A DNA stretch of 28,445 nucleotides from positions 1 to 28,445 of IMG/VR virus record IMGVR_UViG_3300044580_000221; one strand, written 5' to 3'. Below, in pieces: positions 3,280-28,218 of this stretch (position 1 is the stretch's first letter; every line of letters begins with the position of its first letter). The notes below the pieces were generated by a model. The model saw nothing but the letters and a program-made list of their open reading frames with translations, searched no databases and had not been told where the DNA came from. This DNA comes from a virus. Its lineage: Duplodnaviria; Caudoviricetes. The position numbers were made by a program, and so were the translations under genes.

Positions 3280-6200
3280 TTACTCATACCCCACCTTCCC
3301 GAGTATCTCTCCTATCTTTCTATAAACAGATCTGATTCCTTGGATATCACCCTTCTTGTCGTATTCAACTGCTTTCTTGCGCCAGGCAGAAAGTAACGCG
3401 CTTGCGGCATGCAGCCTATAATACCTGCGGATGTCATCCCCTTTTAGCGTATCCGTGGCTCTTTCATACTTTAGCCTTTCAAGGTCAACATAGAATTCAC
3501 CGAGCTGTCGCTGCGGCTTTTCCGGTGCGTGGACCAATATGTCGGATAATACCGGTATATCGGAAGTCTCTTTTATATCTCTCTGCGGTATCTGTCTCAA
3601 AGCCCCGCCGGTATACTGGTTTAAGATATACTCCATCTTCACGGGAGAGATAGTGTCCTTTTTAAACCCGTTCACCACGCCGGCCAGGGCAGTCGCGAGT
3701 TTAGATGTATTGTAAGTTTTGCGTTCTCCGACGGGAAGGTTTTCAAGAGTTCTGCTTTCGATTGGAGATCCGAAATAATTTTTGTTCTCTAACGCCTGAA
3801 TTACCGGGGCAGTCATAGAGATATTCCAGGGCCGCGGAATCTGCCCCTCAATAATTTTTCTAACCGACTCTACATACTTCGTGTCGTTCATTTCCCAGGC
3901 GTCCATCATCGCCATCGGCAAAGACACAAATAACGTTCCGACCTCAAAAGGCATAGGAAGCCTTAATATGGTATGCTCGCCCACCTCGAAGAAAAAGTTT
4001 GAATACCTGTAATCCGGAGGAAGGTTTTTATACCACTGTTTATCTTTTATTTTAAACCAGTTGATCAACGTAAGGGTTGTCAGCCAGGCGAGGCCTTTAA
4101 CAAAGAAGCCGACCGGGTTCTCCTTTATCGCCCGGCCCATCTTATTGGCCCCCTGGACACTGGCGTTAAAGAAAGCCGTTACTTCGTTGATCCTTTTTCC
4201 CATATACCCCGATTTAGTGAAGTTGACGGTAACATCCTGCGCGTCGTTGAATGCTTTTACAAAAGCGTCCTCTTCTGTCCAGTCCGGGTGTTCTTTAATA
4301 TATTTCTTGTATGACTTCTCGAGTTCGGCCACGCGCGGGCCGAGTTCAAAAACATTCAAGCCTTCTCTGACCTGATTCAGCAAATAAGACAATAGGGACG
4401 GGACATTTTTCAGGTTAATTGCCTTTATTACCTTCTTGCTGGCTTTAAGTTTCTGATTTATCAGATCGTCATATATAGACATTGTGGCAGCGCGATCAAA
4501 ACCCATCATACCGCTTAGGGATCCTCCGGTGTTCTTGAAACGCCAGGCGAGATCACCCGGCTTTGCAGTGATCTCCGTGAGCACCCCCTTAGTGGTGTCC
4601 AGGATAGGAATAGAATCCTTATGTTTGGACAGGACGGCATAAGATAACGCGTCTCTCCAGGGGTTGCGCACAAGGTTGAACGACAGCTTCAGTCCGGTAG
4701 CTCCGAGGCGCAGCATACGGGCAAATGGAGAGAATATCTTGAGCAGTGTGCCTCGGTCTAATGTGTCCAGTCCGGACAATGCCCGGTATAAGTCGGGATG
4801 CAGCTCATAGAATTCACGCTTGCCGTCCCTAAATATCGAGACGACATTGTCTTTGCCTCGATATTGCTGCCCTTGGGTAAATACCGTGAGCATATCTTCA
4901 AGGTTGGCGTCGGCTAAATCAACTCCGATTTCCTCGAGCTGCGACTTTAGTTTCTCAAGCGTGAATGATTGCGCCGTCATTGGTGCCGGCACTCTCGAAA
5001 TAAAGCCGCCAACGCCTTCTTTACGCGCAAGGTCTGCTATAAGCCTGGCAATATTTATCTTCTGCGCCTTGAGTATCATCTCTGAGGCCTGAGAAACGAG
5101 GGATTCGATAGGGTTAATGATCGGCCGCGCACTGCCCTTTATAGACTTGACGGCTTCCCCCCTGTTTACCAGACTTGCTCCGGATCCGCGGGATACTGTC
5201 ATTTCATTGACAAATGCGCGTTTAAATGGCAGGTATATCGGGTTAAGTTCCCTGATTATAGCGGCTTCCTGCTTTCCCAGGCCTCCGGCCCTTATTACCC
5301 AATCAAGCAGGTGGTTACTCCATGAAGTTATTCCCTCGAGAACGCTATCCCAATCTTCTTTAGCGGAGTATTTATCCACGATAAACTTAGCGTCCTCAAT
5401 ATCCACGCCGCTTTCTATCCCTCGTTTCTGGAGGTTGAGCGCGCGCTGAGCTATCCCATAGGCTATAAAAGACGGCATCTCTTTGGCCGAGACCGGAGAA
5501 AGTATCTCTACCAACCCAGGCCCCAATATCTTGCCGTACTCATCAATGGCTTTTTCCATGACAAACGTCCGGGCGATCAGGCCGGCTTTTGACTTCGCAT
5601 AGGTGGCCATGGTAAACGGATCAGCCGTTGGCCGGATGTTCACTCCCGGCTTTATCCCCATTTGTTCTTCTATCTTGCGAAGCGTATAGAATTCATCAAT
5701 GAAGTTCCTATTGAACCACTCATAAGCCTTACGCGCCTTTAGGAACCATCCCGGGACCTCTATGTGTTCTTTCTGGAAGTCTATCTGCGCGAGTATCCGG
5801 TTCTCCGCTCCTTGTCCCTGCCAAGTGTCAATCATATCCTTCAGTGAGGTTAGCTTCTTAGCAAAATCAGGATTGCTCTTCAGGAAAACTTCAGTAAAAA
5901 ACTTATGGAAAAGCGGAGCCTTTTGCGCGGCCTGTCCGGTAGTGAGGTAATGCCTCATATATTCGGCGAAGCCTTCAGAAATACGGGATTTCTCCGGCTC
6001 GTAATCAAGTCTGCCAAGTTCTTTATACAAAGCCGCGCGCTCTTTTCCGGAAGCACTTCCGGACTTCCAATGCTTGCCGAGATCCTTTTTCATCTGCGCG
6101 TCTATATGGTGCGCGATCTCGTGCGTCATTGGCTCAATCTCCCCCCACCTTCTAAGCCGGACAATCTGTTCCCTGCGGCTGTATATGCCGGCAAGGTTCT

Positions 6201-9200
6201 TAAAGCGGTGCGTGGCCCTACCCCTGATTGGCACGTTAAAAGCCTTCTCTGCATAAGACAATATCTCGGTCTTATTAACCTTCTTGCCGATAGCCGGTTC
6301 TTTCGGCATAGAAACGCCCCAGGAGCCAGACTTTAAGGCTTCTGCCGTCTTCTTCTCGGCTATACGCTCCGCGCCCAGGTTGCTATATTTAGCAGATTTT
6401 GCCTCGCCATAAAACTTCTTGTATAAGCCTTGCCTATTCTTATTGACAAATTCCTGGACTCTGTATGTCTCTCCTCTCTCCCTTTTTTCAATCTCTACGT
6501 CTCCCATATCAAAATCCCCACGGGCAAGACTTTTCACTTCATATCCGCCACCCCGGGAATCAAGCTGAATAACGTCTGTCATCCTTGCCGGTAACTTATT
6601 GGTATTAGGTAAATTACCAATCTCACATACAATTATATATTGGGCGGCTTTATACCTTTGCACGGACTCAGATATATATTTATATATATCGCTCCTCGAT
6701 CCTATGCTGTCAATACTAAGAACCGAAGATTGAGCGTCGCAGAATATTACCGCAGTCTTATTATTCCTAACGAAATCCTTTGCCGCTCCGGCAGCCCCTT
6801 CCACACTAAAACTTGTCATCCTCCCGGCTTCCTTCCGGTAGTCAGGTTTCTCCGAGAAGAAATCATACATCCTTGCTTTAATAACTGCCGCTTCTTGGAA
6901 GGACTTCGATATAAAAGAAAACTTCCCGCTATCGGTAACTATATGCCCCTTGAACCTCTTCCCGATCAGTGAATAAGCGGTTTTTGTGGTTTCGATGTCA
7001 GGCTCAGAGGCTTCCGGGTTGCCGGATGGATGGTTGTGCGCGAAATAGATCTCATCGGCTCCTACCCTGTCGGCGGCGTTACTTATTCTATAATAGAGTT
7101 TAGACTTGAAATAAACACGGTCAGGCATACCGGAAGATATAACCTGGTGAGCCATGATTTGCTTTTCTTTGAGATATATTACCTGGAATTGCTCGATAAG
7201 TGGATGGCGGAACGCAGCGGCTATTTCTGCCACGTCGTGGATGGAATTTACTTCTTTGCCGCGGAAGTCGACAAAACCCCTTTTACGGAGTTCTTCGGCT
7301 ATTTTTGAGAGTTTCTCCGGGAATCGTATTCCCTTGTCGGCGGGTCGTATATCCCCTGCGTTCCGACCAGTTCCCTTGCTCTCTCGGACTGTTCCTTCTG
7401 AAAGTTGCGGGGTTTGCCCGGAATATCGGGATATGTCTGCTGCGGCTTTTGCGATCTTCGATTCTGCTTCTTCTGGACTGCCATAAGCGATCTCCTTTTC
7501 GCCCAAAGTATACTTTGAAGACTCGGAATTGTCAAGGTTGGGTTCAATTAAATTAGGATCATACCTGACCCCATAACTTTCCACAGCTTCTTTTAGTGGG
7601 ACGCCAATCATTTTCCCGTTGCTATCAGGATATGCGGTAGTTCCATCTGCAGTAATCCATCCCCAGTCTTTATAATCGTCTATAACACGACTTGGGACTT
7701 TTTTACCATCTACAAGTGCTCTAATAATAGCCTTTCTATGCGCGAATAGTGGTATGTTGCTAAATATCTGCCATTGGCCTATATAGTTTAATAAGTCTCC
7801 AATTTGTCCCTCAGTTGGTTTGCTTGGAATCGGTTTTCCGGTAGTCAAGTTACCTACGCCGACTACTTTACCTCCGAATCCGTGTTGATTTGTCATAGCG
7901 TTGAAAGAATCTATGCTCATTAACCCGGTGTCTACTAATTGCTGCGCAAGTTGATTTCTTTCTGCAACTTTTAATGGGTTAATTTTGTCTTTCAGTCTGT
8001 CCCCAATATATTTTATTAAAGGGATATTCTTGAATTCTTCCCGTGTCATTTCGTACGGTTCTTTATGTATTTGATATTGTTTACCTTGTTCCGCTACTGA
8101 CGAGTACCAGAAATTAACCTCAATTCCCTCATCACTTGCCCGGGTAACATTTGCATATCCGCCTTCTGATTCAACCTTGTTTATAAAGGCGAAGGCTTCT
8201 TCCGGATCAGGAAAAAGCCTTACTCCCGCTCCTTCTCCGCGGCCGCTTTCAAGATCGTGGTATGCCTGGTCCTGGCCAGCTCGATCAATTTCCTGTAATT
8301 CGGGTTGTTCAATACCGCCAATCTCCTGTTGAAGTCTTCTCTCTTCATTGATCATCTCCTTGTAATTACCATATAAATCGTCAAGGACTACCACCTGCTT
8401 TTCCGTCAGTGGTTTGCCGTTTAGGGCCTTATCAAGGATATTTAAAACAGGCTTGGCCGAGTATCCTCTGTTTTGGAAATACGGGGGGTAACTTGAAGGC
8501 TCATAACCGGCGTTTATCACTTCCCCGGTAATATTATCACGCGTAACGTATCTTCTCCCCCGGCCACCGGAAGATATTTCGCTTTTCATATCCTCAATAC
8601 CGGTTTTTATGTCATCGTTGAGCTTGACGGCTGATTTCTCATCGAGTTCTATCCCACCTTTTGCCCCTTTGATTGTCTGCTCTATCTGAGTCTTCGGCTG
8701 AAGCCTCTCGGCGAGACGCTTTGTCATCAACACGTCTATTGGATCGGCGCCATTTATTATCTGCTCTCGATAAGGAAGAAGTTCGGCGTACATCCCTTTT
8801 GAAGGATCTGCGCCGGCGGCCCGGGCGCGCGCGGCTTCCTTTGCTCCCACCCTGTCAAATATCTGTGCCCGCTGCAATTTTCCTTTAGCTTGCTGAACCT
8901 CCAATATTACGTCGTCCACGTTCCCATATTCACTCTTGAGCTTCTTAAGGAAAACCTTCCTGTTCTGCTCGTATAAGGCTTTTTGGAAGTTTGGCGAGAG
9001 ATCGGTCTCAGGGTTTAATTGAGCCTGTTTGACGAGCTTTAACGATTCTTTATAAGATACCGGCTTCCCTGCGATCCTGCGTCCCTCGGACATCACCAGT
9101 CCGCGCATTTGCGGGATCTCGGTCATTGCTCCCAATATCCCTATGGTAGCCGCGTTTATCCCTCCTCTGACCAAGGCGCTCTTTGCGTCCGGTTCTTTTC

Positions 9201-10023
9201 CGCTTAAAGCGTCCTGGGCCAGGTTTTCAGTAACAGAAGCCGCTCCGGCACCGGCAGAACGCTGTAGGATACGGTTTAATACAGTCTTCCCCAGGTCTGC
9301 GTCCTTGAATATCTTGCCTGTAACAGCGCCACCGGCGGCCGCCGTGCCTACTTTGGCGGCTCTTTGCTCAGGGGTAAGTTGCTCCTGCCGGTCTGTAACC
9401 TGCCTTACGGTCTCCTGGGCGGCCGGAATGGCCGCGAATTTAGCCACTGTGCCGCCTCCCGGGATAAGATAAGGCAAAACCCCGGCCACAACCTGAGAAA
9501 TAGCAGAATCGGCCGGAAACTCCTGTTTAAGCTCCGGATGCCCCGGGGTAATACCCAAAGCCCCCTGAGCGGCTCCTTGAATCCTGGCGACCCCTCTGCG
9601 GGATTCCTGGCGCTGCTTTTTGACAATATCCTCAACATTATCGGTTCCGTAGGTGGTTTTCAGCTCTTCTTTGGAGAATCCGGATAGGTAATTACGCACC
9701 ACGTCCCATCCTTTATCCCCTACCGTGGCCTCAATTATCTTTGCCAGCGGAGTCTCGGCCTTCTGCGTTTTGCCTTCCGGCTTTACAAGGTTTTTCTTGA
9801 TTTCAGGTGATAAGGCTTTTATCTCGGGGATTGGACGCTTGATCTCCGGGGAAGTATACGGGACGGATTCCTTTGAGACTATCTCCGGCAGCGGGTTTTC
9901 GGTATCCAAGACAAGCTTAGGCTTCTGGACGGTAGAGACAGGCTCTTGATCAAGAACAAGGCGGGGCTTCTTGACCTCCGGAGTCTCCTGGGCCTTCGGC
10001 TCATCCAAAACAAGGACTGGCAT
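3280..10023 (-). CDS. Giant polyvalent ejection protein: RadC/JAB domain, zincin (MPTase-like) domain, LPD38-like C-terminus
   Basis: JAB motif E...YFAHNHPSGNPEASEPD (HNHPSG at 7021..7038); THEIAHHID (HEIAH at 6109..6123) with downstream EGFAEY; C-terminal LRLPMPFE...KNYFGSPIE...ISPVKMEY; last of three ejection-type genes. Confidence 0.8.
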   Translation of the reverse strand: MPVLVLDEPKAQETPEVKKPRLVLDQEPVSTVQKPKLVLDTENPLPEIVSKESVPYTSPEIKRPIPEIKALSPEIKKNLVKPEGKTQKAETPLAKIIEATVGDKGWDVVRNYLSGFSKEELKTTYGTDNVEDIVKKQRQESRRGVARIQGAAQGALGITPGHPELKQEFPADSAISQVVAGVLPYLIPGGGTVAKFAAIPAAQETVRQVTDRQEQLTPEQRAAKVGTAAAGGAVTGKIFKDADLGKTVLNRILQRSAGAGAASVTENLAQDALSGKEPDAKSALVRGGINAATIGILGAMTEIPQMRGLVMSEGRRIAGKPVSYKESLKLVKQAQLNPETDLSPNFQKALYEQNRKVFLKKLKSEYGNVDDVILEVQQAKGKLQRAQIFDRVGAKEAARARAAGADPSKGMYAELLPYREQIINGADPIDVLMTKRLAERLQPKTQIEQTIKGAKGGIELDEKSAVKLNDDIKTGIEDMKSEISSGGRGRRYVTRDNITGEVINAGYEPSSYPPYFQNRGYSAKPVLNILDKALNGKPLTEKQVVVLDDLYGNYKEMINEERRLQQEIGGIEQPELQEIDRAGQDQAYHDLESGRGEGAGVRLFPDPEEAFAFINKVESEGGYANVTRASDEGIEVNFWYSSVAEQGKQYQIHKEPYEMTREEFKNIPLIKYIGDRLKDKINPLKVAERNQLAQQLVDTGLMSIDSFNAMTNQHGFGGKVVGVGNLTTGKPIPSKPTEGQIGDLLNYIGQWQIFSNIPLFAHRKAIIRALVDGKKVPSRVIDDYKDWGWITADGTTAYPDSNGKMIGVPLKEAVESYGVRYDPNLIEPNLDNSESSKYTLGEKEIAYGSPEEAESKIAKAAADISRYSGQTPQLSEGTVRESKGTGRNAGDIRPADKGIRFPEKLSKIAEELRKRGFVDFRGKEVNSIHDVAEIAAAFRHPLIEQFQVIYLKEKQIMAHQVISSGMPDRVYFKSKLYYRISNAADRVGADEIYFAHNHPSGNPEASEPDIETTKTAYSLIGKRFKGHIVTDSGKFSFISKSFQEAAVIKARMYDFFSEKPDYRKEAGRMTSFSVEGAAGAAKDFVRNNKTAVIFCDAQSSVLSIDSIGSRSDIYKYISESVQRYKAAQYIIVCEIGNLPNTNKLPARMTDVIQLDSRGGGYEVKSLARGDFDMGDVEIEKRERGETYRVQEFVNKNRQGLYKKFYGEAKSAKYSNLGAERIAEKKTAEALKSGSWGVSMPKEPAIGKKVNKTEILSYAEKAFNVPIRGRATHRFKNLAGIYSRREQIVRLRRWGEIEPMTHEIAHHIDAQMKKDLGKHWKSGSASGKERAALYKELGRLDYEPEKSRISEGFAEYMRHYLTTGQAAQKAPLFHKFFTEVFLKSNPDFAKKLTSLKDMIDTWQGQGAENRILAQIDFQKEHIEVPGWFLKARKAYEWFNRNFIDEFYTLRKIEEQMGIKPGVNIRPTADPFTMATYAKSKAGLIARTFVMEKAIDEYGKILGPGLVEILSPVSAKEMPSFIAYGIAQRALNLQKRGIESGVDIEDAKFIVDKYSAKEDWDSVLEGITSWSNHLLDWVIRAGGLGKQEAAIIRELNPIYLPFKRAFVNEMTVSRGSGASLVNRGEAVKSIKGSARPIINPIESLVSQASEMILKAQKINIARLIADLARKEGVGGFISRVPAPMTAQSFTLEKLKSQLEEIGVDLADANLEDMLTVFTQGQQYRGKDNVVSIFRDGKREFYELHPDLYRALSGLDTLDRGTLLKIFSPFARMLRLGATGLKLSFNLVRNPWRDALSYAVLSKHKDSIPILDTTKGVLTEITAKPGDLAWRFKNTGGSLSGMMGFDRAATMSIYDDLINQKLKASKKVIKAINLKNVPSLLSYLLNQVREGLNVFELGPRVAELEKSYKKYIKEHPDWTEEDAFVKAFNDAQDVTVNFTKSGYMGKRINEVTAFFNASVQGANKMGRAIKENPVGFFVKGLAWLTTLTLINWFKIKDKQWYKNLPPDYRYSNFFFEVGEHTILRLPMPFEVGTLFVSLPMAMMDAWEMNDTKYVESVRKIIEGQIPRPWNISMTAPVIQALENKNYFGSPIESRTLENLPVGERKTYNTSKLATALAGVVNGFKKDTISPVKMEYILNQYTGGALRQIPQRDIKETSDIPVLSDILVHAPEKPQRQLGEFYVDLERLKYERATDTLKGDDIRRYYRLHAASALLSAWRKKAVEYDKKGDIQGIRSVYRKIGEILGKVGYE

Positions 10024-10024
10024 A

Positions 10025-10744
10025 TTACTCCTCTATGCGGTATTTCTTGCCATCCCTGACGACTTTCCAGATGCCGTTTTCCTGGAAGGCATCAGGATAT
10101 TCGGAGTAAGGCGACTTTTGCGCGCCTGATTGGGATTGGTCTCCTTGCCCGGATCCTATAAGCTTGGAAAGTCTTTGCGCCATGGTAACACTCGGAAGAG
10201 ATTGAGCCACACTCTGCATAGCCTCTACCCCCGGAAGCATTCCTGCTGCAGTCTGCTGTTGATCTGTCCCTGCCCCGGGTAACTTGCTTCTTATGGCCGA
10301 TATTATTCTCCCGAGTATCCCGAGTTTATCTCCGCTTGCGCCATCGGATTGACTTCCTGCCTGGGTTTGACCTTCAGATGAATCCTCAGATTTAAAGTCT
10401 TCTATATCCCCAGCTCTGCGCATAAACCTGTTGGCATAGGCCGCCTCATTCTGCGAAAGCCCCTCTCCGTTTGCGACCTTAAGCTTTATACCCTGCTCGA
10501 AGTCCTTAACGTCGTCTTTCTTGTCCGGCTTCATTTTTGCCAATGCGAACTCCAATGCCTCCTGCTTTGTGGTAGGCTTCCATTCTTTTGCCTGAGGTTC
10601 GCTTATGTCTAACTGCGGGACCTTCCCGGAAGAGGCAGTATTCGCTATTAAAGCAAGAACTTTTTTAAGCTTGTCTTTCATCTGGCTTCCGTTCTCAGAA
10701 CCAGTATCGTCTGTTCCGCCTGAACCGCTTAATATACCGCTCAT
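10025..10744 (-). CDS. Putative ejection/internal virion protein
   Basis: G/S/Q-rich low complexity; lies between the gp7-like gene and the giant gene. Confidence 0.5.
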   Translation of the reverse strand: MSGILSGSGGTDDTGSENGSQMKDKLKKVLALIANTASSGKVPQLDISEPQAKEWKPTTKQEALEFALAKMKPDKKDDVKDFEQGIKLKVANGEGLSQNEAAYANRFMRRAGDIEDFKSEDSSEGQTQAGSQSDGASGDKLGILGRIISAIRSKLPGAGTDQQQTAAGMLPGVEAMQSVAQSLPSVTMAQRLSKLIGSGQGDQSQSGAQKSPYSEYPDAFQENGIWKVVRDGKKYRIEE

Positions 10745-10756
10745 TTATTCACCCCC

Positions 10757-11539
10757 TTATAGTAGCAATGTGGCCAGACTCGCCGCCAGGGCTATATATT
10801 GCCCGGTTTCGTCATCGTCGGATGAGTCGTAGGTTTTTGTGCTTGTTGAAGTAGAACCCGCGCCAGCTAAACTGGCTATGATATTGGCGAGGCTCGTTCC
10901 GTAACTTTGCGTATTCAGGTAATCGCTGTATAACTTATCGAGGCCGGACTGGCTGAGCGTCCTTTCCAGACTCCCATATGTCTGCGCGGCCGCCGCTTTC
11001 TTCAGGTCGGTTTCAGTCTCCTGTTGTCCGAGGTTGGCCGCCGCCGAAGCAGCCGTCAACTTGTTCTGTCTTTCCTGGTTGGCCAGAGAATAGATTATTT
11101 CGTTCAGGCTGTTTGCCGTATCCTCTGCGGCGTCTGACTGCGATGCCAGCCTTGCGCCAGACCAGTAAGACCCTCCGCCGGCGGCCTGGCTCGCTATATT
11201 TTTCTGCGTCTCAGCCAGGTTTTTATTGGCCTCTGCCTTAACCGCCTGGTAATAACCGGACGTGGTAGGATCATATTTATCGCTTGATAGCGTGTCGGAA
11301 TATTCTTTCTTCGCGGCAGTGGTAAGCGAAGAGTCGGTGGAATCAAGATACTTCTGCAAGAGAGATGTTGACTGTTTCTCCTGCGCAGTCTCATCTGCCG
11401 TCAATTGACCGGAATAACCAGAGAGAGAACTCAACTGGTTGCTAAGCCAAGACTTTAGCTGTTTAGTGAGCTCTGTATCGGAACTGGAAGATACCGTTGT
11501 TGAATTTTGGTTACTGCTCGATCCGAGTATTCCGCCCAT
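10757..11539 (-). CDS. Putative DNA-transfer/pilot ejection protein (P22 gp7-like position)
   Basis: MGG start, S/T/A/Q-rich helical sequence, GGSYWSGAR motif, hydrophobic C-terminus; follows the GNAT-like gene. Confidence 0.6.
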   Translation of the reverse strand: MGGILGSSSNQNSTTVSSSSDTELTKQLKSWLSNQLSSLSGYSGQLTADETAQEKQSTSLLQKYLDSTDSSLTTAAKKEYSDTLSSDKYDPTTSGYYQAVKAEANKNLAETQKNIASQAAGGGSYWSGARLASQSDAAEDTANSLNEIIYSLANQERQNKLTAASAAANLGQQETETDLKKAAAAQTYGSLERTLSQSGLDKLYSDYLNTQSYGTSLANIIASLAGAGSTSTSTKTYDSSDDDETGQYIALAASLATLLL

Positions 11540-11540
11540 T

Positions 11541-11957
11541 TTATCGCTCCTTTGTTAAATCCATCTTCAACACGCTGCCGTGCATCTCAAAATGATATTT
11601 ATATATAAATCCCCTCGGATTTCTTTGGGTAATGAAATAGATCCTTTTCAACCCCTTTGCTTTCGCCCAGGTTTTGACCTTTGTCAGCAATTCGAATCCG
11701 ATGCTCTTGTCTTCTTTGCACGGATTGATCACGCAGAACTGGATGAACGCACACTTTTCTCCGTCAAACGTCTCAACCGTCGCATATATAAATCCCGTTA
11801 CTTCCGGTTCCCGCCAGTCCATATAAGCCACGGTATTATCGTTGTTGAGCGTGGAGTATATGAACTTTTTCAACGCTTCCAGCGGCGTCCCCTGGACCAC
11901 CTCGGCAAGTTTGACAAGCTTCGGCACCCACAACGGGTTATCGAATTTAAGTATCAT
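11541..11957 (-). CDS. GNAT-fold acetyltransferase-like virion assembly protein
   Basis: GFIYA...IGFELLTKVKTWAKAKGLKRIYF fits GNAT motifs A/B; usual position before podovirus ejection genes. Confidence 0.6.
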   Translation of the reverse strand: MILKFDNPLWVPKLVKLAEVVQGTPLEALKKFIYSTLNNDNTVAYMDWREPEVTGFIYATVETFDGEKCAFIQFCVINPCKEDKSIGFELLTKVKTWAKAKGLKRIYFITQRNPRGFIYKYHFEMHGSVLKMDLTKER

Positions 11958-12280
11958 TCGTCTTCTTTCTCCCCGGATCCGGTCTGCCTGAGAATCTCTT
12001 TCTCAAGGTCGCTCTCGCCCTTATCTATGCCTATCTTTAGGACATCATAGTTTACGCGCCTGCTTTTGCGCTCGCCGTTCTCGTCCATCCCTTTACTGGT
12101 CATTTTCATTACTACCGTAGCGGTTATTGTATCCCCGACGTCTTTGTTAAATAAAACGTCTGGTACGTTTTCATACATACTAAAGCCCGGGTAATAGATA
12201 CGGACTTTCTTTTCTGACGGCTTGCTCGGCTGTTCTGCAATCGTGTTCTCTTCTTTTCTCCCCAGGTCGATCATCTTCAT
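11954..12280 (-). CDS. Hypothetical virion protein, possibly capsid staple/cement-like
   Basis: MIDLG...YYPGFSM...VGDTITATVVMKMTS; beta-rich; within the virion operon. Confidence 0.4.
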   Translation of the reverse strand: MKMIDLGRKEENTIAEQPSKPSEKKVRIYYPGFSMYENVPDVLFNKDVGDTITATVVMKMTSKGMDENGERKSRRVNYDVLKIGIDKGESDLEKEILRQTGSGEKEDE

Positions 12281-12292
12281 TGTTTACCCCTT

Positions 12293-12622
12293 TCAGACCA
12301 AGATAATTTGTTTGAACGCATAAGTATATTGTCCTGAGCCATCTATCCCGGAACGTATGCAAGTATACATCGTATCCGGATCTGAATCCGTTGCGCCTTG
12401 CAGCAGGAACAACTTTCCCCTGTATTTTTCCAACGGTTCGTCCGGCAAATCCTCAACGATATCGGCCGCGCGGTCAAGGGCGTTTACGTCGTCGGAGATA
12501 TTCTCCGACAATTTTTTCATGATCTCGTTGAGGTCCTTGCAGAACTGAAGTGTAGCCTCGTCTTTTATCTGAGAATAATCAGGGAACATCCCCAGGCTCG
12601 TTGTCTTTATCGTCCTGCTCAT
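12293..12622 (-). CDS. Hypothetical tail-associated protein
   Basis: ATGA-coupled to the nozzle gene; N-terminal helix then beta strands. Confidence 0.55.
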   Translation of the reverse strand: MSRTIKTTSLGMFPDYSQIKDEATLQFCKDLNEIMKKLSENISDDVNALDRAADIVEDLPDEPLEKYRGKLFLLQGATDSDPDTMYTCIRSGIDGSGQYTYAFKQIILV

Positions 12623-14403
12623 CTATTTGTCTTTCCTTTGGCGTATAGATAGTTAAGCCAGCCGAGAAGCGAGAAATGGTTTGTCGCCTCGAGCGAAGTC
12701 CTGAAATTCACCCCGTGCCGGTCCCAGGTAATGTTTTTCTTCACAACGTCTTTGTCGACGTCCACAAGAGATATGGTATGCGTCAGTGATTCATCGGCTA
12801 TCCTGTCGTCTTTTCGTAAAGATACTTTTACCTCTCCGGAGATATCGCTTTCCAGCCAATGCTGTTGTTTCCAGAGCCGTTTCGTGGTATCCGGCAGGTC
12901 GAAATTCATACGGGAGCTCGAGAACTTTCGCGTATAATCTTCCCCGTCGTCGGTATACCCGACATCCGCGTCCCTGATATACCCGTCCGATCCGCCGTAG
13001 ACTATCTGTGGCGCGCCGGAAAGGAAGTTGCGCGAATTCCAGAAACCATCTTGTTCGTCGACATATCTTTCGTCCCAGGGGCTATCATCAACGTAGAAAT
13101 CCTCGACATTTAAATACTCCCCGATGATATTGCAGGCCTGTTCAGACGCATATTCCCAGATATGCAGAATACCCTGGTTGTAGTCATACGTAATGCAGGC
13201 GTTCATATAGTCAGGGTTGTTATGCGGGACAAACCAGCGTATTTGATTCCTCGATTCCACCTGATATCCAAAAATGTCCTGCTCAAGGTTGGGATCGAAG
13301 TTTATACAGTAAGAATCTATCTCTTCGCTTATAACGTTATCTGTCAATAGATTCCAAGAATGGAACCGGTTTTCGGGCCCATAATAAAAGATATACTTAT
13401 CGTTGGCCGTTATAGACCGCGGCGCCCAGGCGCCAGCGCAGGAATTTGAAGTCTCATAGGTGAATGAATCGCTTGAACTTGAATATCTGCCGACCTGCGC
13501 GTCGCGTTCCCTAAAGACGATATGATACCCATTCCAGACAAGACTTCCTGTTATCCAATACCCGCCTTCGACAAAATCCTGAAAATCAAGGTCGTCATAA
13601 TCTTCGCAGTCTCCGACTTCACTCCACCTTATCCTTTGTGGCTGGTTGCCTGATTCTATTGTATGCAGCCAGAAAACGCGGTCTTTATATACCTCGATGT
13701 ATTTTGCCGAGACAAAGCTGGTAGGTAGATTTGACAAGGCCTGCACCTGCCCTGTTCCGGTGTATCTTATCGGGGTATCAACGCCGTTTGTGGCCAGCCA
13801 TACTTCGCCGAGATTCTTGTCGTAAAAAGACCGCGCGTGCCAGAAGTCAGCGCTGCCGCCGTTGAATATCTTCCTTGCGACGTATGCCGTGCTGGCCGCT
13901 GTCTCGACTGCGGCTGTTTTTAAAGTGAGCTGTGTATCGCTGTCAACGGAATCAATCTCATACCAAGTTGAACCGGTATGAATGTCCCCGGAGCCGATCT
14001 TGATATAATCCCCGGCTTTTAGCTCAGTAGACCAGGCCGTGCCGGAACCAAGAACCACATTTAAAGCGGCAGACTGTATTTCTATCGTTCCCGTGGTATA
14101 AACAGGCGTGAGGATATCGAAACGTTTGTTATTAAAGTCATATTTGTAAATATCCTTCGTGGTGCAGATCATCCAATACCAGGTGGAATTGAACTTCCAG
14201 AACTGTTCAATAAGCAACAGCGGACCCGATAGCTGTTGTGAATCAAACTTATCCAGTCCGAGCCGGCCGCGCAGGTATTCGTTATAGAATTCCACATTGC
14301 GTGAATCGGCGGAAGAGTAGTTATTCGACAAAAACTCTTCCGGCTTGTCTATCACTATGCCTTTATTCGGCAGGAATGTCGGTATCGTCTGCAATGCGCT
14401 CAC
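12619..14403 (-). CDS. Tail nozzle / packaged-DNA stabilisation protein (P22 gp10 / T7 gp12-like)
   Basis: 594 aa, beta-propeller-like (ATNGVDTP, YKDRVFW, RIRWSEVGD); expected position. Confidence 0.65.
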   Translation of the reverse strand: MSALQTIPTFLPNKGIVIDKPEEFLSNNYSSADSRNVEFYNEYLRGRLGLDKFDSQQLSGPLLLIEQFWKFNSTWYWMICTTKDIYKYDFNNKRFDILTPVYTTGTIEIQSAALNVVLGSGTAWSTELKAGDYIKIGSGDIHTGSTWYEIDSVDSDTQLTLKTAAVETAASTAYVARKIFNGGSADFWHARSFYDKNLGEVWLATNGVDTPIRYTGTGQVQALSNLPTSFVSAKYIEVYKDRVFWLHTIESGNQPQRIRWSEVGDCEDYDDLDFQDFVEGGYWITGSLVWNGYHIVFRERDAQVGRYSSSSDSFTYETSNSCAGAWAPRSITANDKYIFYYGPENRFHSWNLLTDNVISEEIDSYCINFDPNLEQDIFGYQVESRNQIRWFVPHNNPDYMNACITYDYNQGILHIWEYASEQACNIIGEYLNVEDFYVDDSPWDERYVDEQDGFWNSRNFLSGAPQIVYGGSDGYIRDADVGYTDDGEDYTRKFSSSRMNFDLPDTTKRLWKQQHWLESDISGEVKVSLRKDDRIADESLTHTISLVDVDKDVVKKNITWDRHGVNFRTSLEATNHFSLLGWLNYLYAKGKTNR

Positions 14404-14407
14404 CCTT

Positions 14408-15328
14408 TTAATACTTAATGATCATATTTGTTACCATGTGAGGGTTCATAACATCTTGAGCCGAGCTACCAGAAGAAGGGACAAGAATATCAGAGTTTAT
14501 ATAATCACGGGTAATTTCATACTGACCATTATTACCTGTTTTTAGCGCCAACCTATTGTCTCCGTCTGTTCCGTTGCTGTTAACTTTGGTGTAGGTGGTG
14601 GCGGCCAGAATTGTATGGGTATGTGATATATCTTTGGTCTTTGCGCCGCCTGTTTGCCCGATATACGAAAAGTCAGAATCGGAAGAATCTCTCCCTACTG
14701 GCATTAGCCCCTGCCAGTCCGGCAGGTTAAACGTTGTGCTTCCGTCCCCTGCTCCGAATGTCGTTCCTATGACCGCAAAAAGGTCTGCATAGGTAGTGCG
14801 TGATAGCGCCTGTCCCTGGCAAAGAAGCCATCCATCCGGGGCCGTTGTCGTAGGCCAGAGTAGTTGAGCGCCGACCGGGACAACTCCCGGAATCCGCACT
14901 CGGTCGTCAGCGTCAACCTTAAACACTTCAACGTATCCGTCGCCGTCTTTATTCGTTACCTTAAACCACTCATTGTTTGGCAAACGGTTGCCTTTATCGG
15001 TAAGCTGAATCTCGTTTGCGTCCGCATCGATGACGAACAACTCCACTTTCTCGTCATCACCTACCGTCTTGCCGTATATGTCGATCGCGGCTTCCGAACC
15101 TGTGCCGGTTGGCTGGACAGGCGTGCCGGTGCCTACGGTGATAAACCGGCCTTTTTTGAACCCGACGATTGTCTCCCATTCGCTTTCGCTGTCTGTCGTG
15201 AACCCGTAGATAATATCCTGAAGCCTCTCGGCCAGGTCTTTCATTATGTTTCTTGAATAACCCGGGATATTCTTAAATTTTGAATGATCTGGGATTAACG
15301 ACGAATCCCAATTACGCGTAAATGTCAT
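14408..15328 (-). CDS. Tail fibre protein with a phage tail collar domain
   Basis: VPVGAQLLW...APDGWLLCQGQALSRTTYADLFAVIGTTFGAGDGSTTFNLPD, followed by HTH(T) and NPHMVTNMIIKY. Confidence 0.85.
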   Translation of the reverse strand: MTFTRNWDSSLIPDHSKFKNIPGYSRNIMKDLAERLQDIIYGFTTDSESEWETIVGFKKGRFITVGTGTPVQPTGTGSEAAIDIYGKTVGDDEKVELFVIDADANEIQLTDKGNRLPNNEWFKVTNKDGDGYVEVFKVDADDRVRIPGVVPVGAQLLWPTTTAPDGWLLCQGQALSRTTYADLFAVIGTTFGAGDGSTTFNLPDWQGLMPVGRDSSDSDFSYIGQTGGAKTKDISHTHTILAATTYTKVNSNGTDGDNRLALKTGNNGQYEITRDYINSDILVPSSGSSAQDVMNPHMVTNMIIKY

Positions 15329-15462
15329 CTTATACCTCCAGGGTTCTTACCGCGTAACTCTGTGCCAATAAGTAATACAGGTCAGAATTAAGCAGGCAGA
15401 AAATCAACATCGAAAAAAACCTGTTATTTGAGAACTTTATACGCATACGCTCAGATGATTTT

Positions 15463-15999
15463 CTATGCGACTTTAACCTTATGGTTAATCAATAACGAAT
15501 CTCCATTCGCAACGTTTAAAACAGCGAAGGATTGGCTGGCCAACATTGTGCCGGCCAATGTAGCGTTAAATATGCCTTCTTCTGTTAACGCCAAGGATCC
15601 AGTAAAAGAAAACGTGGTGGTAAACTGCATAGTGTCGTTCGAGACGGTAGTTGTAGTCAGTGTTCCAACAACATCAGCTCCGCCTCTGCGCGCCCCCCCG
15701 TTTGTAGTGCACTCGGCGCCCAATGCGGTGGCCCCAGGTGTGCCGGTTCCGAGCGCAATATAATCAAATGCCGTCCCGCCTACATCCGGAGATAACAGAC
15801 TGGCCATCAGGGCTTTTCCGGCATCTGTAATGGTGTTCTTTATGTGCCTGGTCTCTTTTATGCGGCCGTTCTTATCCCGCAGAACCATCTCTATTTCACC
15901 GGAGAGTTTTACGGAATCAAAAAGCCCCTTTCTCCTGCCTGTTCCAAAAACCTTGACTGCTAAGAAAACAAACGCCAATATGACTATTGCCTGGATCAT
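15463..15999 (-). CDS. Virion fibre-associated protein with an N-terminal hydrophobic helix
   Basis: KNTITDAGK...YIALGTG...TEEGIFNA...G.ML pattern seen in phage fibre-base domains; AAGGAGG SD. Confidence 0.6.
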   Translation of the reverse strand: MIQAIVILAFVFLAVKVFGTGRRKGLFDSVKLSGEIEMVLRDKNGRIKETRHIKNTITDAGKALMASLLSPDVGGTAFDYIALGTGTPGATALGAECTTNGGARRGGADVVGTLTTTTVSNDTMQFTTTFSFTGSLALTEEGIFNATLAGTMLASQSFAVLNVANGDSLLINHKVKVA

Positions 16000-16016
16000 G
16001 ACTTTCCTCCTTTTGC

Positions 16017-16078
16017 AAAATAAAAAGGGCGCAAACCAGTGATCCCGTCGTAAAGACGGTATTCATGGTTTACGCCCT
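16017..16078 (-). terminator. Long-stem intrinsic terminator, copy 2
   Basis: AGGGCGUAAACCA...UGGUUUGCGCCCU followed by UUUUAUUUU. Confidence 0.75.
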
Positions 16079-16097
16079 CAAGACTGTCTCGCCGGGC
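16074..16097 (-). promoter_or_regulatory. Putative antiterminator hairpin, copy 2
   Basis: GCCC-GG-CGAGA-CAG-UCUUG-A-GGGC; 20/24 identical to 26260..26283; its 3' AGGGC is also the terminator 5' arm. Confidence 0.7.
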
Positions 16098-16562
16098 TTA
16101 AACTCTACGCCAGGTATCGTCAGGCTTTATTTTTCTTCTCCAAGTGCTCACAGCAGAAGTCGCCTTTGTCCATGTGGTTGATATTGCTGATTTCCTCATC
16201 CATTTTAAAGCTTTACTAAAAAGATCCGACAAAGAAGTATTATCTAAAAATAGTCTTGTCAGCGTGCGAGTGATTGTGTCGGTTATTGTAATGGTTTCCT
16301 CGAGTAATTTTGTGATTGTTCTGGTTATAGCGTCGCTTGAGGTAATGGAATCAATGAACGACCTGACAACTCCCCTACTGAGAATATCCGATAAAGAGGA
16401 AGAATCAGAGAACCCGCGGCTTATTCCTTTACTCATTGTTTCAGTAACTGACATGGTTTCCTCAGCTACTCCTTCCCAAACAAGAGACACGACAAGATTA
16501 CTTTCCAAATCTATTACCTCGTTCAAAGATAAATCTATAACTGGTGCGCGAAAAAAATTCAT
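16098..16562 (-). CDS. Thr/Ser-rich repeat protein (about five 18-aa repeats), probably a virion fibre component
   Basis: ETMSVTETMSKGISRGFS / DSSSLSDILSRGVVRSFI / DSITSSDAITRTITKLLE / ETITITDTITRTLTRLFL / DNTSLSDLFSKALKW. Confidence 0.65.
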   Translation of the reverse strand: MNFFRAPVIDLSLNEVIDLESNLVVSLVWEGVAEETMSVTETMSKGISRGFSDSSSLSDILSRGVVRSFIDSITSSDAITRTITKLLEETITITDTITRTLTRLFLDNTSLSDLFSKALKWMRKSAISTTWTKATSAVSTWRRKIKPDDTWRRV

Positions 16563-16565
16563 AGT

Positions 16566-18020
16566 CTAATACCCGTAATGCTCCTCAATGATTATCACGC
16601 CTGACCCACCGTTGCCTCCGTCTGCAGATGCCCCGTTTCCACCTGCGCCACCGGCTCCAACCGCGTAAGCATACGATGCAGCCGGCTCAGGGATATATAT
16701 TTCCACATATTCTCCTCCGCCTCCTCCAGAGCAACCGTATGACCCCCACGCAGAACTACCACCAGCACCGCCTCCTCCACTCCCAACATTACTTACTCCA
16801 ACTCCACCTGCCCCACCTCCGGCAGAACCACCGTGTCCACCTCCCCCTAACGTGGTGGCTCCGCCAGCTCCACCTGGATAATCACCAACTACATTTGCCA
16901 TCAAACCAGGCGCGCCGGGAAGCCTAACAGTGGCAGTCCCACTTCCTCCACCTCCGCCTCCCCCGGGGCTGGAGTAACCATTAGAAGCCCCCCCGCCGTT
17001 AGCGTAAACCGTCCCAAACTGCGAGTTTCCTCCGGCAGAACCAGAGAAATAACCCACACCATTGGATATACCTCCACCCCCACCTCCGCCGCCAACCATC
17101 CGCACTTTAATCCACTTTACCCCAGATGGCGTGGTGTATGTTCCGCTTCCAGAGGTTAGAGTCGTTATTGATGGAGCGATGGGATTATTGTGGTAATTTT
17201 GTTCAATTTCAGTAATCTTGCTTCCCATCTCTAACTGCATTTCGGTCAGTTCAAAATTCTTGGTCGTAATTTCACCACATTCAATCTTAATTTCGATTTC
17301 AATTCCGTTAGAACAATCACCCATCGAGATAGATTCATATTTTATCGTCGTTGCTGTGGCAGAAGCAACGGAAATTGCCCCACTGTTTCCAACTGCAGTT
17401 GTGGAAGAGAAATCATCTGCGGAAGCGGCTTTCTTAACATAGATTGTATAATTTATAGCCGACCCAACATCGTGATAAACTTTGGCCTGGAATGATGCAA
17501 CCTGATTCTTTAGCCAAATTGCATCTTTTGATTCTATTCTTGTTCGCAGGTATAAAATTCCGGTTCCGGTGAGCGTAACTCCGGAAAATTTAAACCCATA
17601 ACCCGTCCGACCACAATTTGCTGTGGCTGTCTGCTCCAAAGTACCGGCAGATACCGCCGTGCCGGTGGCCATACCGGCAAATTTATCTGGGCCAAAACCG
17701 TACTCATCCTTGACCAAGGTATATGCAGATACTCTTTGATTAACTATTCCGGAACCATTGATAACCAGGTTTTTACGGCCAAGTCCAACTATATAAGCAT
17801 TGGCCCATCGTTTATCCGATGCCCCCAGGTCGTCGGTATTATCCGCGCTTGGAGACGTAGCATCTGCCCAAGCTCCATCAACATCACATCGGAAGAGATG
17901 TTTAGTATCACTTTCATAATACCAATCTCCTTGAGATGGTGAAGCCGGACGATTAGCATGCGTACCAACACGAAAAGGCTGGTGAAGATCTGCTCCGGAT
18001 AAGTCATGATGCTGTCCCAT
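16566..18020 (-). CDS. Tail fibre/receptor-binding protein with a CBM-like middle and a Gly-rich C-terminal domain
   Basis: DLGASDKRWANAY; KNLVING...NQR...QLEMGS; SGTYTTPSGVKWIKVRMVGGGGGGG...GGSGVIIIEE. Confidence 0.75.
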   Translation of the reverse strand: MGQHHDLSGADLHQPFRVGTHANRPASPSQGDWYYESDTKHLFRCDVDGAWADATSPSADNTDDLGASDKRWANAYIVGLGRKNLVINGSGIVNQRVSAYTLVKDEYGFGPDKFAGMATGTAVSAGTLEQTATANCGRTGYGFKFSGVTLTGTGILYLRTRIESKDAIWLKNQVASFQAKVYHDVGSAINYTIYVKKAASADDFSSTTAVGNSGAISVASATATTIKYESISMGDCSNGIEIEIKIECGEITTKNFELTEMQLEMGSKITEIEQNYHNNPIAPSITTLTSGSGTYTTPSGVKWIKVRMVGGGGGGGGISNGVGYFSGSAGGNSQFGTVYANGGGASNGYSSPGGGGGGGSGTATVRLPGAPGLMANVVGDYPGGAGGATTLGGGGHGGSAGGGAGGVGVSNVGSGGGGAGGSSAWGSYGCSGGGGGEYVEIYIPEPAASYAYAVGAGGAGGNGASADGGNGGSGVIIIEEHYGY

Positions 18021-19261: not shown

Positions 19262-19300
19262 AACACGGGGAAGAGCCGCTCTCGCGGCCCTCCCCGCGCG
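19262..19300 (-). terminator. Stable hairpin after the capsid gene (attenuator or mRNA stabiliser)
   Basis: GCGCGGGGAGGGCCGC-GAGA-GCGGCUCUUCCCCGUGU then a short UU tail; GNRA tetraloop. Confidence 0.6.
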
Positions 19301-26207: not shown

Positions 26208-26262
26208 AAAAAAGGCGCAAGCCGGATACCCGCGCGCTTCGCGCGAAATCCAGACTTGCGCC
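26208..26262 (-). terminator. Long-stem intrinsic terminator, copy 1, ahead of the packaging operon
   Basis: GGCGCAAG...CUUGCGCC followed by UUUUUU. Confidence 0.8.
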
Positions 26263-26283
26263 CTCAAGACTATCTTGTCAGGC
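26260..26283 (-). promoter_or_regulatory. Putative antiterminator hairpin, copy 1
   Basis: GCCU-GA-CAAGA-UAG-UCUUG-A-GGGC, 7 nt after the stop of the 49-aa gene; overlaps the terminator 5' arm. Confidence 0.7.
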
Positions 26284-26290
26284 TATTTAT

Positions 26291-26440
26291 TTATCCGAGG
26301 CTTTCCCGTTTTTCAATAATGTCCCCTTTGGTGATTTTCCCTTCGTGAATCTTGAACTCGATAATCATCGAACCGAACCGCATTTCATCGGCCCGGCGCT
26401 TTAGCTCTTTTATTATCACTTCCTGCTTATCTTCAGGCAT
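26291..26440 (-). CDS. 49-aa YezD/DUF2292-like protein (absent from the ORF track)
   Basis: Translated by hand: MPEDKQEVIIKELKRRADEMRFGSMIIEFKIHEGKITKGDIIEKRESLG; helix-FGS-strand-HEG-strand-EK pattern recalled for DUF2292. Confidence 0.65.
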   Translation of the reverse strand: MPEDKQEVIIKELKRRADEMRFGSMIIEFKIHEGKITKGDIIEKRESLG

Positions 26441-26718: not shown

Positions 26719-28218
26719 TCATATAAGCCCCTTCTTTATCCCCGGATCAATAACAGGCGGGATAGGAGGTGGGACAGCAGCATCCGGCCGTATGATCCGG
26801 CTCTTCCTGGCGGCCAATTCCTCACGGATCTTCTTTATCCGCTCGCGTTCCGCATTGATGAACGACATCGCCGCCTCACGCTGCTCTGGGATAATATTCT
26901 TCTCCGCATTTTCAAGGAATGCTTCGGCGTCTTTTAGGTGCCCCATGTCCGTAAGCATGACGGCTATATTATTATTTAGGCGGAAGTCGTTCTTGCGCAA
27001 CTTCCAGCCCTTAAACCATGTTTCAAGCGCAATGAAGTTATGACCGGCCTTCTTTTCGAGCAATCCTTTCCAGGTATAGCAGGAATAGAGATCCGGGTAG
27101 TTCATGATATTCGAATCAGCCTGGGCCATCTCATCCTTGTAAGCCGGGATATGAAAGATGGTCCTGACGAGGTAGTATACGAAAAATGCAGTCGTTACAA
27201 TCGTCTGGAGGTATAAACCGCTATCCTCTACCGGGATCTTGGCCAGAAGATTACTCATCATCAACATCAGCCCAACCAGAGGAAGGTATATATATCGCTC
27301 TGCGATTGACTGCTGTATTGTTATCACATTGCACCATTGCGAAATAAAAAGCACGAACCAAAACAGACCAAACACGGCCTGGTCAGTATAGATATTCTTG
27401 ATATTGCAAATCAGTATCGACATCACGGTTAAGCCAAGGAAGAAATACCCGTCTATCCTGTGGCATTCCTTGTTGTCTTTATCGCTCAGGCCATAACTGT
27501 AAAGAAACTTATGGTATATCCCGAGCCTAAAAGGCATCAACCCCATCAGAAAATAGTACCCCAGCGTCTTGAAATACAGAATGATCTTCACCGGCTTGAA
27601 GGCGGTCATTATTTTTGTGGATCCTCCCCAGCGCGGCCCGATCAGCTTCTTGTAGTACCACAGAAACGTAAGTGCTCCTGCAGGGATAAGAAATATATAC
27701 CACCAGTAATCCGACAATATGAACATCGCCGGCGTCAAGATGAAATTGAAGTTAGTCGCCGCTATTGCGAAATTGAAAAAGTAAAGTATCGGTGCATAAG
27801 CAGGAAACACCCACATAAGCAGGGCCGTAAGCGTGGCTATTGAATACCCGCGCGCCGACATCCATACGGACCCTTGGGTCCCGGCGGGATTCACGGCAAA
27901 TAACACGGCCGCCATAAAAGAGACTGAATTACTACCAAAGGCATAGTAGATCATAATTGAATTGGCCGCATGGAACAGTAGCGTGAACAGATGCGCCAGC
28001 TTCTTTGACTTCAGGCGCGTATACGAAAAATGCCACCATAGGTATTGAATGGGGTTTGAGGCGGTCAGCTCCGGCGTATAGGCCGGCGGATTGTTTTTGA
28101 TCTTGCGCAGCTTATTGGAATTCTTCCACAGCTGCACGTCGTCCACGCAGAGGCCGTAAAATATCGTCTTCCAGAATACCAAAAGAACGAGAGTGAATAT
28201 CAGGATTGCGGGTATCAT
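26719..28218 (-). CDS. Multi-pass GT-C glycosyltransferase-like protein (TMTC-like) with a C-terminal TPR
   Basis: DD after TM1; LFAVNP...SVWMSAR; IAERYIYLP; many TM helices; TPR-like NNNIAVMLTDMGHLKDAEAFLENA. Confidence 0.75.
   Translation of the reverse strand: MIPAILIFTLVLLVFWKTIFYGLCVDDVQLWKNSNKLRKIKNNPPAYTPELTASNPIQYLWWHFSYTRLKSKKLAHLFTLLFHAANSIMIYYAFGSNSVSFMAAVLFAVNPAGTQGSVWMSARGYSIATLTALLMWVFPAYAPILYFFNFAIAATNFNFILTPAMFILSDYWWYIFLIPAGALTFLWYYKKLIGPRWGGSTKIMTAFKPVKIILYFKTLGYYFLMGLMPFRLGIYHKFLYSYGLSDKDNKECHRIDGYFFLGLTVMSILICNIKNIYTDQAVFGLFWFVLFISQWCNVITIQQSIAERYIYLPLVGLMLMMSNLLAKIPVEDSGLYLQTIVTTAFFVYYLVRTIFHIPAYKDEMAQADSNIMNYPDLYSCYTWKGLLEKKAGHNFIALETWFKGWKLRKNDFRLNNNIAVMLTDMGHLKDAEAFLENAEKNIIPEQREAAMSFINAERERIKKIREELAARKSRIIRPDAAVPPPIPPVIDPGIKKGLI

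Follow-up and report, generated by a model that had tools for sequence, protein, structure and literature searches.

Positions 16,017 to 16,097 of the DNA analysed here raise the question of why a phage would carry a second copy of a hairpin-terminator element within its virion operon, and whether this copy acts as a gate on the genes that follow it. The DNA (hereafter the window) is 28,445 nucleotides in length, positions 1 to 28,445 of IMG/VR record IMGVR_UViG_3300044580_000221, a linear virus record that is approximately 69% complete. The late region is podophage-like and lies on the minus strand, as do both copies of the element, their terminators and the genes adjoining them: it encodes terS, terL, a P22-like portal, the capsid protein, an SU10-type adaptor, fibres, a 594-aa virion protein, a GNAT protein and putative ejection proteins. 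It ends with a SAM methyltransferase and an HTH protein on the same strand (104-1383). A relative of the capsid protein (66%) sits within a Candidatus Omnitrophota assembly, so this phylum is the likely host of the phage. Sequencing runs that contain the stretch are mainly from digesters, wastewater and sludge; no RNA run is recorded among them, which counts neither for nor against the element.

The second copy of the hairpin (copy 2; 16074..16097), a candidate protein-binding antiterminator, follows directly after the TAA stop codon of a 154-aa gene of unknown function (16098..16562; phrog_12240). It is identical at 20 of 24 positions to the first copy (copy 1; 26260..26283), which lies 10.2 kb upstream. 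The runner-up match to copy 1 in the window has seven mismatches rather than four, and four or fewer were attained by only 1 of 300 dinucleotide shuffles of the window. Copy 2 folds into a 4-bp outer stem, a 2x1 internal loop, a 5-bp inner stem and a 3-nt loop. The four changes had been said to leave this fold intact, and they do: U-G becomes C-G (position 4), A becomes G in the internal loop (6), A-U becomes G-U (8) and U becomes C in the apical loop (12). When folded alone, the two hairpins have an identical predicted structure, with energies of -10.2 (copy 2) and -9.2 kcal/mol (copy 1). Copy 2 scores 40.2 bits in a model of the hairpin family, of whose training set it is itself a member. 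A third copy is absent from the window (best other match 10 bits with filters off), and an Rfam search of the window at E values up to 1 returned no match.

Each hairpin runs into a predicted intrinsic terminator. That of copy 2 (16017..16078) has four paired nucleotides of its 5' base in common with the hairpin. The sequence-only reading had it keep a long paired stem and a U-tract, which agrees with the predicted fold (-32.7 kcal/mol; a 10-nt tract with nine U at 16026-16017), and its GC-rich stem stands next to the U-tract in this prediction, as is typical of an intrinsic terminator. The copy 1 terminator (26208..26263), predicted at -37.9 kcal/mol with a U-tract at 26213-26208, lies upstream of a 77-aa ORF and terS-terL-portal. 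A simple terminator scan missed the copy 2 terminator because its stem is long and interrupted; in a scan for U-tracts, it is the second strongest on the minus strand. The terminator base is homologous between the copies, with 9 bp in which 45 of 45 cells are paired across five sequences (including one G-C to A-U double change), a pairing that is not significant when taken alone (96 of 500 shuffles). Downstream on the same strand are a Shine-Dalgarno-like stretch (16014-16006) and the start codon of the next gene (together 15997..16014), a layout that matches that behind copy 1. Two runs, each from a different study, have contigs in which copy 2 is intact (X1, 781 bp with one difference; X4, 362 bp with no differences), and this rules out an assembly artefact; X1 is possibly not independent of the source of the window.

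The first gene 3' of copy 2 encodes a 178-aa podophage fibre-type protein (15463..15999; PF23140, E 1.7e-5, 25.6 bits, below the cut-off of 27). The minus-strand genes beyond it (3280..15328) encode a collar-type fibre, the 594-aa virion protein, the GNAT protein and putative ejection proteins including a 2247-aa LPD38/RadC protein. Copy 2 had been proposed to gate fibre, nozzle, ejection and lysis genes. The fibre and ejection identities have profile support (for the fibre and LPD38, the ejection matches being weak) and the nozzle was assigned from gene order only, while no lysis gene was recognised among the genes downstream of copy 2. The 2247-aa protein (3280-10023) has RadC-like JAB and LPD38 domains; it is polyvalent and probably injected along with the DNA.

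The hairpin is part of a family found in other phages. Ten aligned phage hairpins covary, with 93.8% of cells paired and a score of 0.522 versus 0.174 when shuffled (0 of 500 shuffles), although the structure was derived from these same 10 sequences and their relatedness inflates the shuffle control; control alignments that were slid out of register had 29-51% of cells paired. Inner covarying pairs alternate among A-U, U-A and C-G, and one outer pair alternates between C-G and G-C. The conserved part of the element is 24 nt. Its loop ends in AG(U/G), and the invariance of unpaired loop bases points to a ligand. Copy 2 retains all of the pairs and all 11 positions that are invariant in the nine other hairpins; the simulated chance of four random changes keeping both is 0.0014-0.007. 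Three of its four changes are also present in the primary copies of other phages. The claim that selection acts on RNA structure is upheld by the covariation of the family and by the 11 invariant positions that copy 2 keeps. As judged from these sequences, this selection marks the history of the copy 2 sequence and not necessarily its life at the present site: the fold-keeping changes could predate its arrival there.

The element is closely linked to a small gene. In the window, copy 1 begins 7 nt after the stop codon of a 49-aa DUF2292-like gene (26291..26440). A hairpin and terminator stand behind such a gene in 11 of the 12 viral loci found by protein alignment, two of them after an extra short ORF; two of the 12 loci (L032 and L033) are identical across this region. 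The exception, L039, has the gene without the hairpin. In that locus (gene at 22-168), neither hairpin nor terminator occurs in the 5.4 kb behind it. Two loci that were found via the RNA pattern (L041 and L051) likewise carry a DUF2292-like gene upstream. When a scan was run with two inner pairs left free, 11 matches were obtained, of which four have both pairs complementary: all four are accompanied by a terminator and a DUF2292-like gene (three are in already-known records), and the other seven have neither. In four more distant relatives (L016, L019, L028 and L054), neither the gene nor the hairpin was found in the more than 3 kb examined upstream of terL. In L054, the Omnitrophota-borne relative, inspection by eye shows a sigma-70-like promoter upstream of terS, along with further stem-loops that carry U-runs (3590-3810), possibly a different late switch.

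The 49-aa protein matches PF10055 at E 0.0037 and 17.3 bits; the family cut-off is 22 bits, so we label the protein DUF2292-like. Nine of its 20 homologues match PF10055 at E values up to 0.1 (best 1.9e-4). It is approximately neutral by residue count (11 K/R, 11 D/E), and its predicted model is helix-strand-strand with a pLDDT of 91. Structure searches with this model gave a best Z of 3.8, no Foldseek or sequence match, and Atlas matches that were all under 0.9. A tblastn search against GenBank phages found nothing, and a profile search of genome contigs with the DUF alignment gave none in 49 candidates. Just upstream of the gene is a 499-aa multi-pass membrane protein (26719-28218) with a weak C-terminal TPR match and no family match. 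The sequence-only reading called for a factor working in trans, and the DUF2292-like gene supplies a candidate for it: copy 2 sits 10 kb from the gene, so the factor would have to act in trans, and a remote copy fits such action. The DUF2292-like protein likely opens both gates, its role as the ligand being suggested by the linkage of gene and hairpin.

On balance, and with modest confidence, we favour the reading that copy 2 is a lineage-restricted duplicate of the hairpin-plus-terminator cassette, likely a local gate that is opened when the DUF2292-like protein binds the hairpin. In copy 2, the 3' GGGC of the hairpin also forms the foot of the terminator stem. Each of the 13 phage elements that were folded shows this kind of overlap: the 3' strand of the hairpin gives two to four paired nucleotides to the terminator base, the overlap being only 2 bp in two of them. 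The predicted folds favour the terminator in 10 of the 13, by 1.3 kcal/mol in copy 1 and 3.6 kcal/mol in copy 2. The other three, in which the protein-free antiterminator is at least as stable, are L004, L034 and the second copy of L038. In the absence of protein, the copy 2 terminator would form and RNA polymerase would stop near 16020. With protein on the hairpin, the leftover stem would end 4-5 nt before the U-tract. A stem ending at this distance should block terminator completion, and polymerase would then go on to transcribe the genes for the fibre, the 594-aa virion protein and the ejection proteins. Copy 1, directly behind the protein's own gene, would be the conserved main gate to terS-terL-portal-capsid, and copy 2 an optional extra whose effect, confined to this strain, is to tighten or delay expression of the tail and ejection genes.

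The element is best read as a RAT-like local antiterminator site with a small protein that would bind in trans. BglG/LicT RAT sites are stem-loops that partly overlap a terminator (PMC12591593). As in the BglG/SacY/LicT-RAT systems, the phage element has a small stem-loop that is weaker than the intrinsic terminator it overlaps, the bound protein would permit read-through at one terminator, and there are several sites per protein (PMC12591593). The copy 2 antiterminator hairpin is likewise predicted to overlap and exclude its terminator, by way of the four shared paired nucleotides. Unlike RAT (approximately 30 nt), the phage hairpin is 24 nt long and has no Rfam match; unlike BglG, SacY and LicT, the candidate is a 49-aa DUF2292-like protein and the genes under control would be late genes of a phage. 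Among the 28 window proteins scanned with Pfam, none has a CAT or PRD domain, the record being incomplete and a host protein possible. An ANTAR system was also considered and rejected: there is one hairpin per site instead of a dual hairpin, and none of the 28 window proteins has an ANTAR match.

The position of the hairpins next to stop codons (0 nt after the stop for copy 2, 7 nt for copy 1 and about 4-7 nt in relatives) is what would be expected if the hairpin were melted, and termination thereby favoured, by a ribosome finishing translation there or by the protein in the role of a repressor. Against this, the invariant unpaired loop bases suggest a ligand, and no clear ORF precedes the second copy of L038; a repressor would add little, because the terminator already wins unaided in 10 of the 13 elements. 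We regard a ribosome-driven or negative switch as very improbable.

In the lambdoid N/nut and Q systems, RNA polymerase is modified processively. The arrangement described here is like these in that late transcription would be released by a phage factor whose gene closes an upstream operon, and unlike them in that the geometry of the phage RNA suggests a fold switch that acts locally. Site-by-site rather than processive action was proposed from the sequence alone. This proposal is favoured by the hairpin-terminator overlap, which is present in every copy, and weakened by a terminator-like stem without a family hairpin that lies behind the capsid gene, between the two copies and on the same strand (19268..19295), with counterparts in L010 and L011. 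This stem is conserved (near 11220 in L010 and near 5015 in L011); its U-tract, interrupted in the window, is unbroken in L010. A strong hairpin-less stem at this point means that either the stem leaks or the polymerase is modified. In the latter case, the hairpin would serve as a loading site, as nut, put and conAn2 do, at which the protein modifies RNA polymerase, and copy 2 would reload it or serve a second promoter. That strong stem, which occurs in L010 and L011 as well as in the window, fits this, as does the presence of one hairpin for the entire late region in most relatives. Leaky terminators behind capsid genes are common, as in T7, and this counts against the processive reading. The overlap of all 13 hairpins with the terminator base would be needless for a loading site, and a scan for internal promoters in the window gave 18 sites versus 19.2 expected, no excess above chance.

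The nearest processive parallel is conAn2 of pLS20, an RNA of approximately 260-600 bp that acts over distance and in cis (PMC8191782). As in conAn, a small protein gene is followed by an RNA element where the long operon of a mobile element begins, a further point for processive action (PMC8191782). In contrast to the several hundred nucleotides of conAn2, the phage element is 24 nt in length and overlaps its own terminator, which speaks against such action (PMC8191782). Taken together, processive antitermination appears quite unlikely, and we retain the local gate as the preferred reading.

The second checkpoint of the sequence-only reading is not a general one: the related phages checked lack the motif at this place, an outcome that the reading itself had named as refuting. 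Among 26 viral loci that carry a homologue of the downstream gene, not one has a hairpin and terminator within 300 nt upstream (most of these loci are from distant phages, and the DUF gene was not seen in their examined DNA), and a family model scan of 25 new downstream-gene loci found no hairpin. The gene junction is tightly coupled in L005, L104 and L105. In the closest relative with both flanking genes (protein identity 92% for the DUF gene and 89% for the downstream gene), copy 1 is unchanged, but the two genes at the copy 2 site are joined by a start-stop overlap. Three close phages (capsid 95%) that span the adaptor to the 594-aa gene have no family hairpin there, and two of them carry other genes in the interval. 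Eight whole virus records, three of which are complete, have one real copy each; a weak second match in one (G003) falls within coding sequence. The only relative with two copies is L038, in which they stand approximately 325 nt apart in tandem before terS (2310-2355 and 2634-2710). The second copy of L038 has the internal loop UA instead of GA, and its open state is favoured.

Strains that co-occur with the window also differ at this site. One strain is 94 nt shorter and unalignable over 15919-16369 in runs X2, X4 and X6, with the same joint in X1 and X3; this fits the absence of the 98-nt spacer at copy 2. One X3 contig (1034 bp, otherwise two differences from the window) is missing 48 nt (16047..16094), comprising most of the hairpin and the 5' arm of the terminator. 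This deletion is possibly a natural knock-out of the gate or a library artefact, being seen in a single contig of a run that is labelled cDNA but is probably DNA. Runs X5, X8 and X10 do not bridge the copy 2 site. The fibre region (15300-18020) is mosaic among close strains: segments are replaced in several runs, and L011 and L012 have entirely different genes. The idea that the sister strain has the L010 layout was not confirmed, L010 being 126 nt shorter over a nearby interval.

These differences among strains bear on whether copy 2 does anything at its present site. The hairpin, terminator and ribosome site may have moved as a block from the primary copy of a sister phage and become a fixed leaky attenuator, or a nearly neutral passenger, with the fold-keeping changes selected in the donor. 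Consistent with this are the orthologous junctions without copy 2 (0 of 26 carry it, and three are tightly coupled), the 94-nt-shorter strain, the 48-nt deletion in X3 and the mosaic fibre region; copy 2 is also about equally close to the primary copy of L032 and to that of its own genome. A terminator of -33 kcal/mol before essential virion genes calls for efficient read-through, however, and this genome itself encodes the protein. Furthermore, copy 2 is unchanged in contigs of two studies, and a donor with its terminator was sought and none found. We consider this passenger reading unlikely. Since copy 2 is missing in relatives and deleted in one contig, it is not essential, and the sequences indicate that it is likely an optional extra and not a fixed checkpoint. 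The preferred reading is thus of a copy 2 that is genuine and probably functional, but strain-specific.

The DUF2292 family has a similar association in bacteria. Of the 301 Omnitrophota genomes searched, 63 contain a DUF2292 that scores above cut-off. At the 30 best-scoring of these host loci, 20 DUF2292 genes have a same-shaped hairpin no more than 200 nt away, versus 147 of 3000 random windows; a stricter hairpin test gave 9 of 30 versus 36 of 3000 (with one locus taken on the wrong strand). The phage proteins are thus like bacterial DUF2292 (PF10055) in their weak profile match and in the same hairpin architecture behind the host members, and unlike it in that they score below cut-off and in that the loop and inner stems of the phage hairpin differ from those of the host. 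A clear overlapping terminator is present at only a few host hairpins and absent from most. In the host loci (L073-L102), the 3' arm of the hairpin contains GGAGG and a terminator is often absent, so some host sites may act on translation. The genes downstream of the host hairpins mostly start like exported proteins (by eye). A search for the phage-type hairpin in 151 Omnitrophota genomes gave weak matches in six (E 0.013-0.048), with 41 candidates scored per genome; the one of these that was inspected (G001) falls within a long coding frame.

Other small regulators and structured RNAs were also compared. HemP/HmuP/ChuP with the HPRE is similar in being a tiny positive regulator, proposed in 10.1101/2022.02.10.479982 to act post-initiation on the leaders of several unlinked genes. 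It differs in serving heme uptake rather than phage genes, and the HPRE sequences quoted there differ from the hairpin (10.1101/2022.02.10.479982). The HemP profile has no match in the phage proteins. Moco-II RNA (RF01713) was rejected as a candidate, with no Rfam match at E values up to 1 and, in the alignment rows of the PMC2864571 supplement, no YGAC...GAGG layout. The terms COG5583, pfam10055 and DUF2292 are absent from the supplement text of PMC2864571 that was searched. In a literature search that covered few subscription papers, we found no description of the hairpin or the protein and no DUF2292 function in print.

From its sequence and predicted folds, the element is most likely a real, structured and apparently undescribed RNA switch of known logic, opened by a DUF2292-like microprotein. 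A wider proposal, which is tentative and falls somewhat short of probable, is that DUF2292-like microproteins and 24-nt hairpins make up an undescribed, widespread family of site-specific RNA antiterminators, which phages would use as a late-gene switch and rewire by copying or deleting an 80-nt cassette in the virion operon. This genome would then have gained a second working gate that stages the head genes before the tail and ejection genes, with co-existing strains showing states without it. The genome is a natural test set, with one protein and two sites of different predicted tightness (+1.3 and +3.6 kcal/mol), a hairpin-less terminator between them that bears on processivity, and natural variants without the second site. 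If the proposal is true, the small switch would be usable as a synthetic-biology part. The phage late antiterminators N, Q and put (and AlpA) act by changing the polymerase. If a 49-aa protein opened terminators singly, each via a 24-nt hairpin, this would represent a different way of timing late genes and would provide a function for DUF2292.
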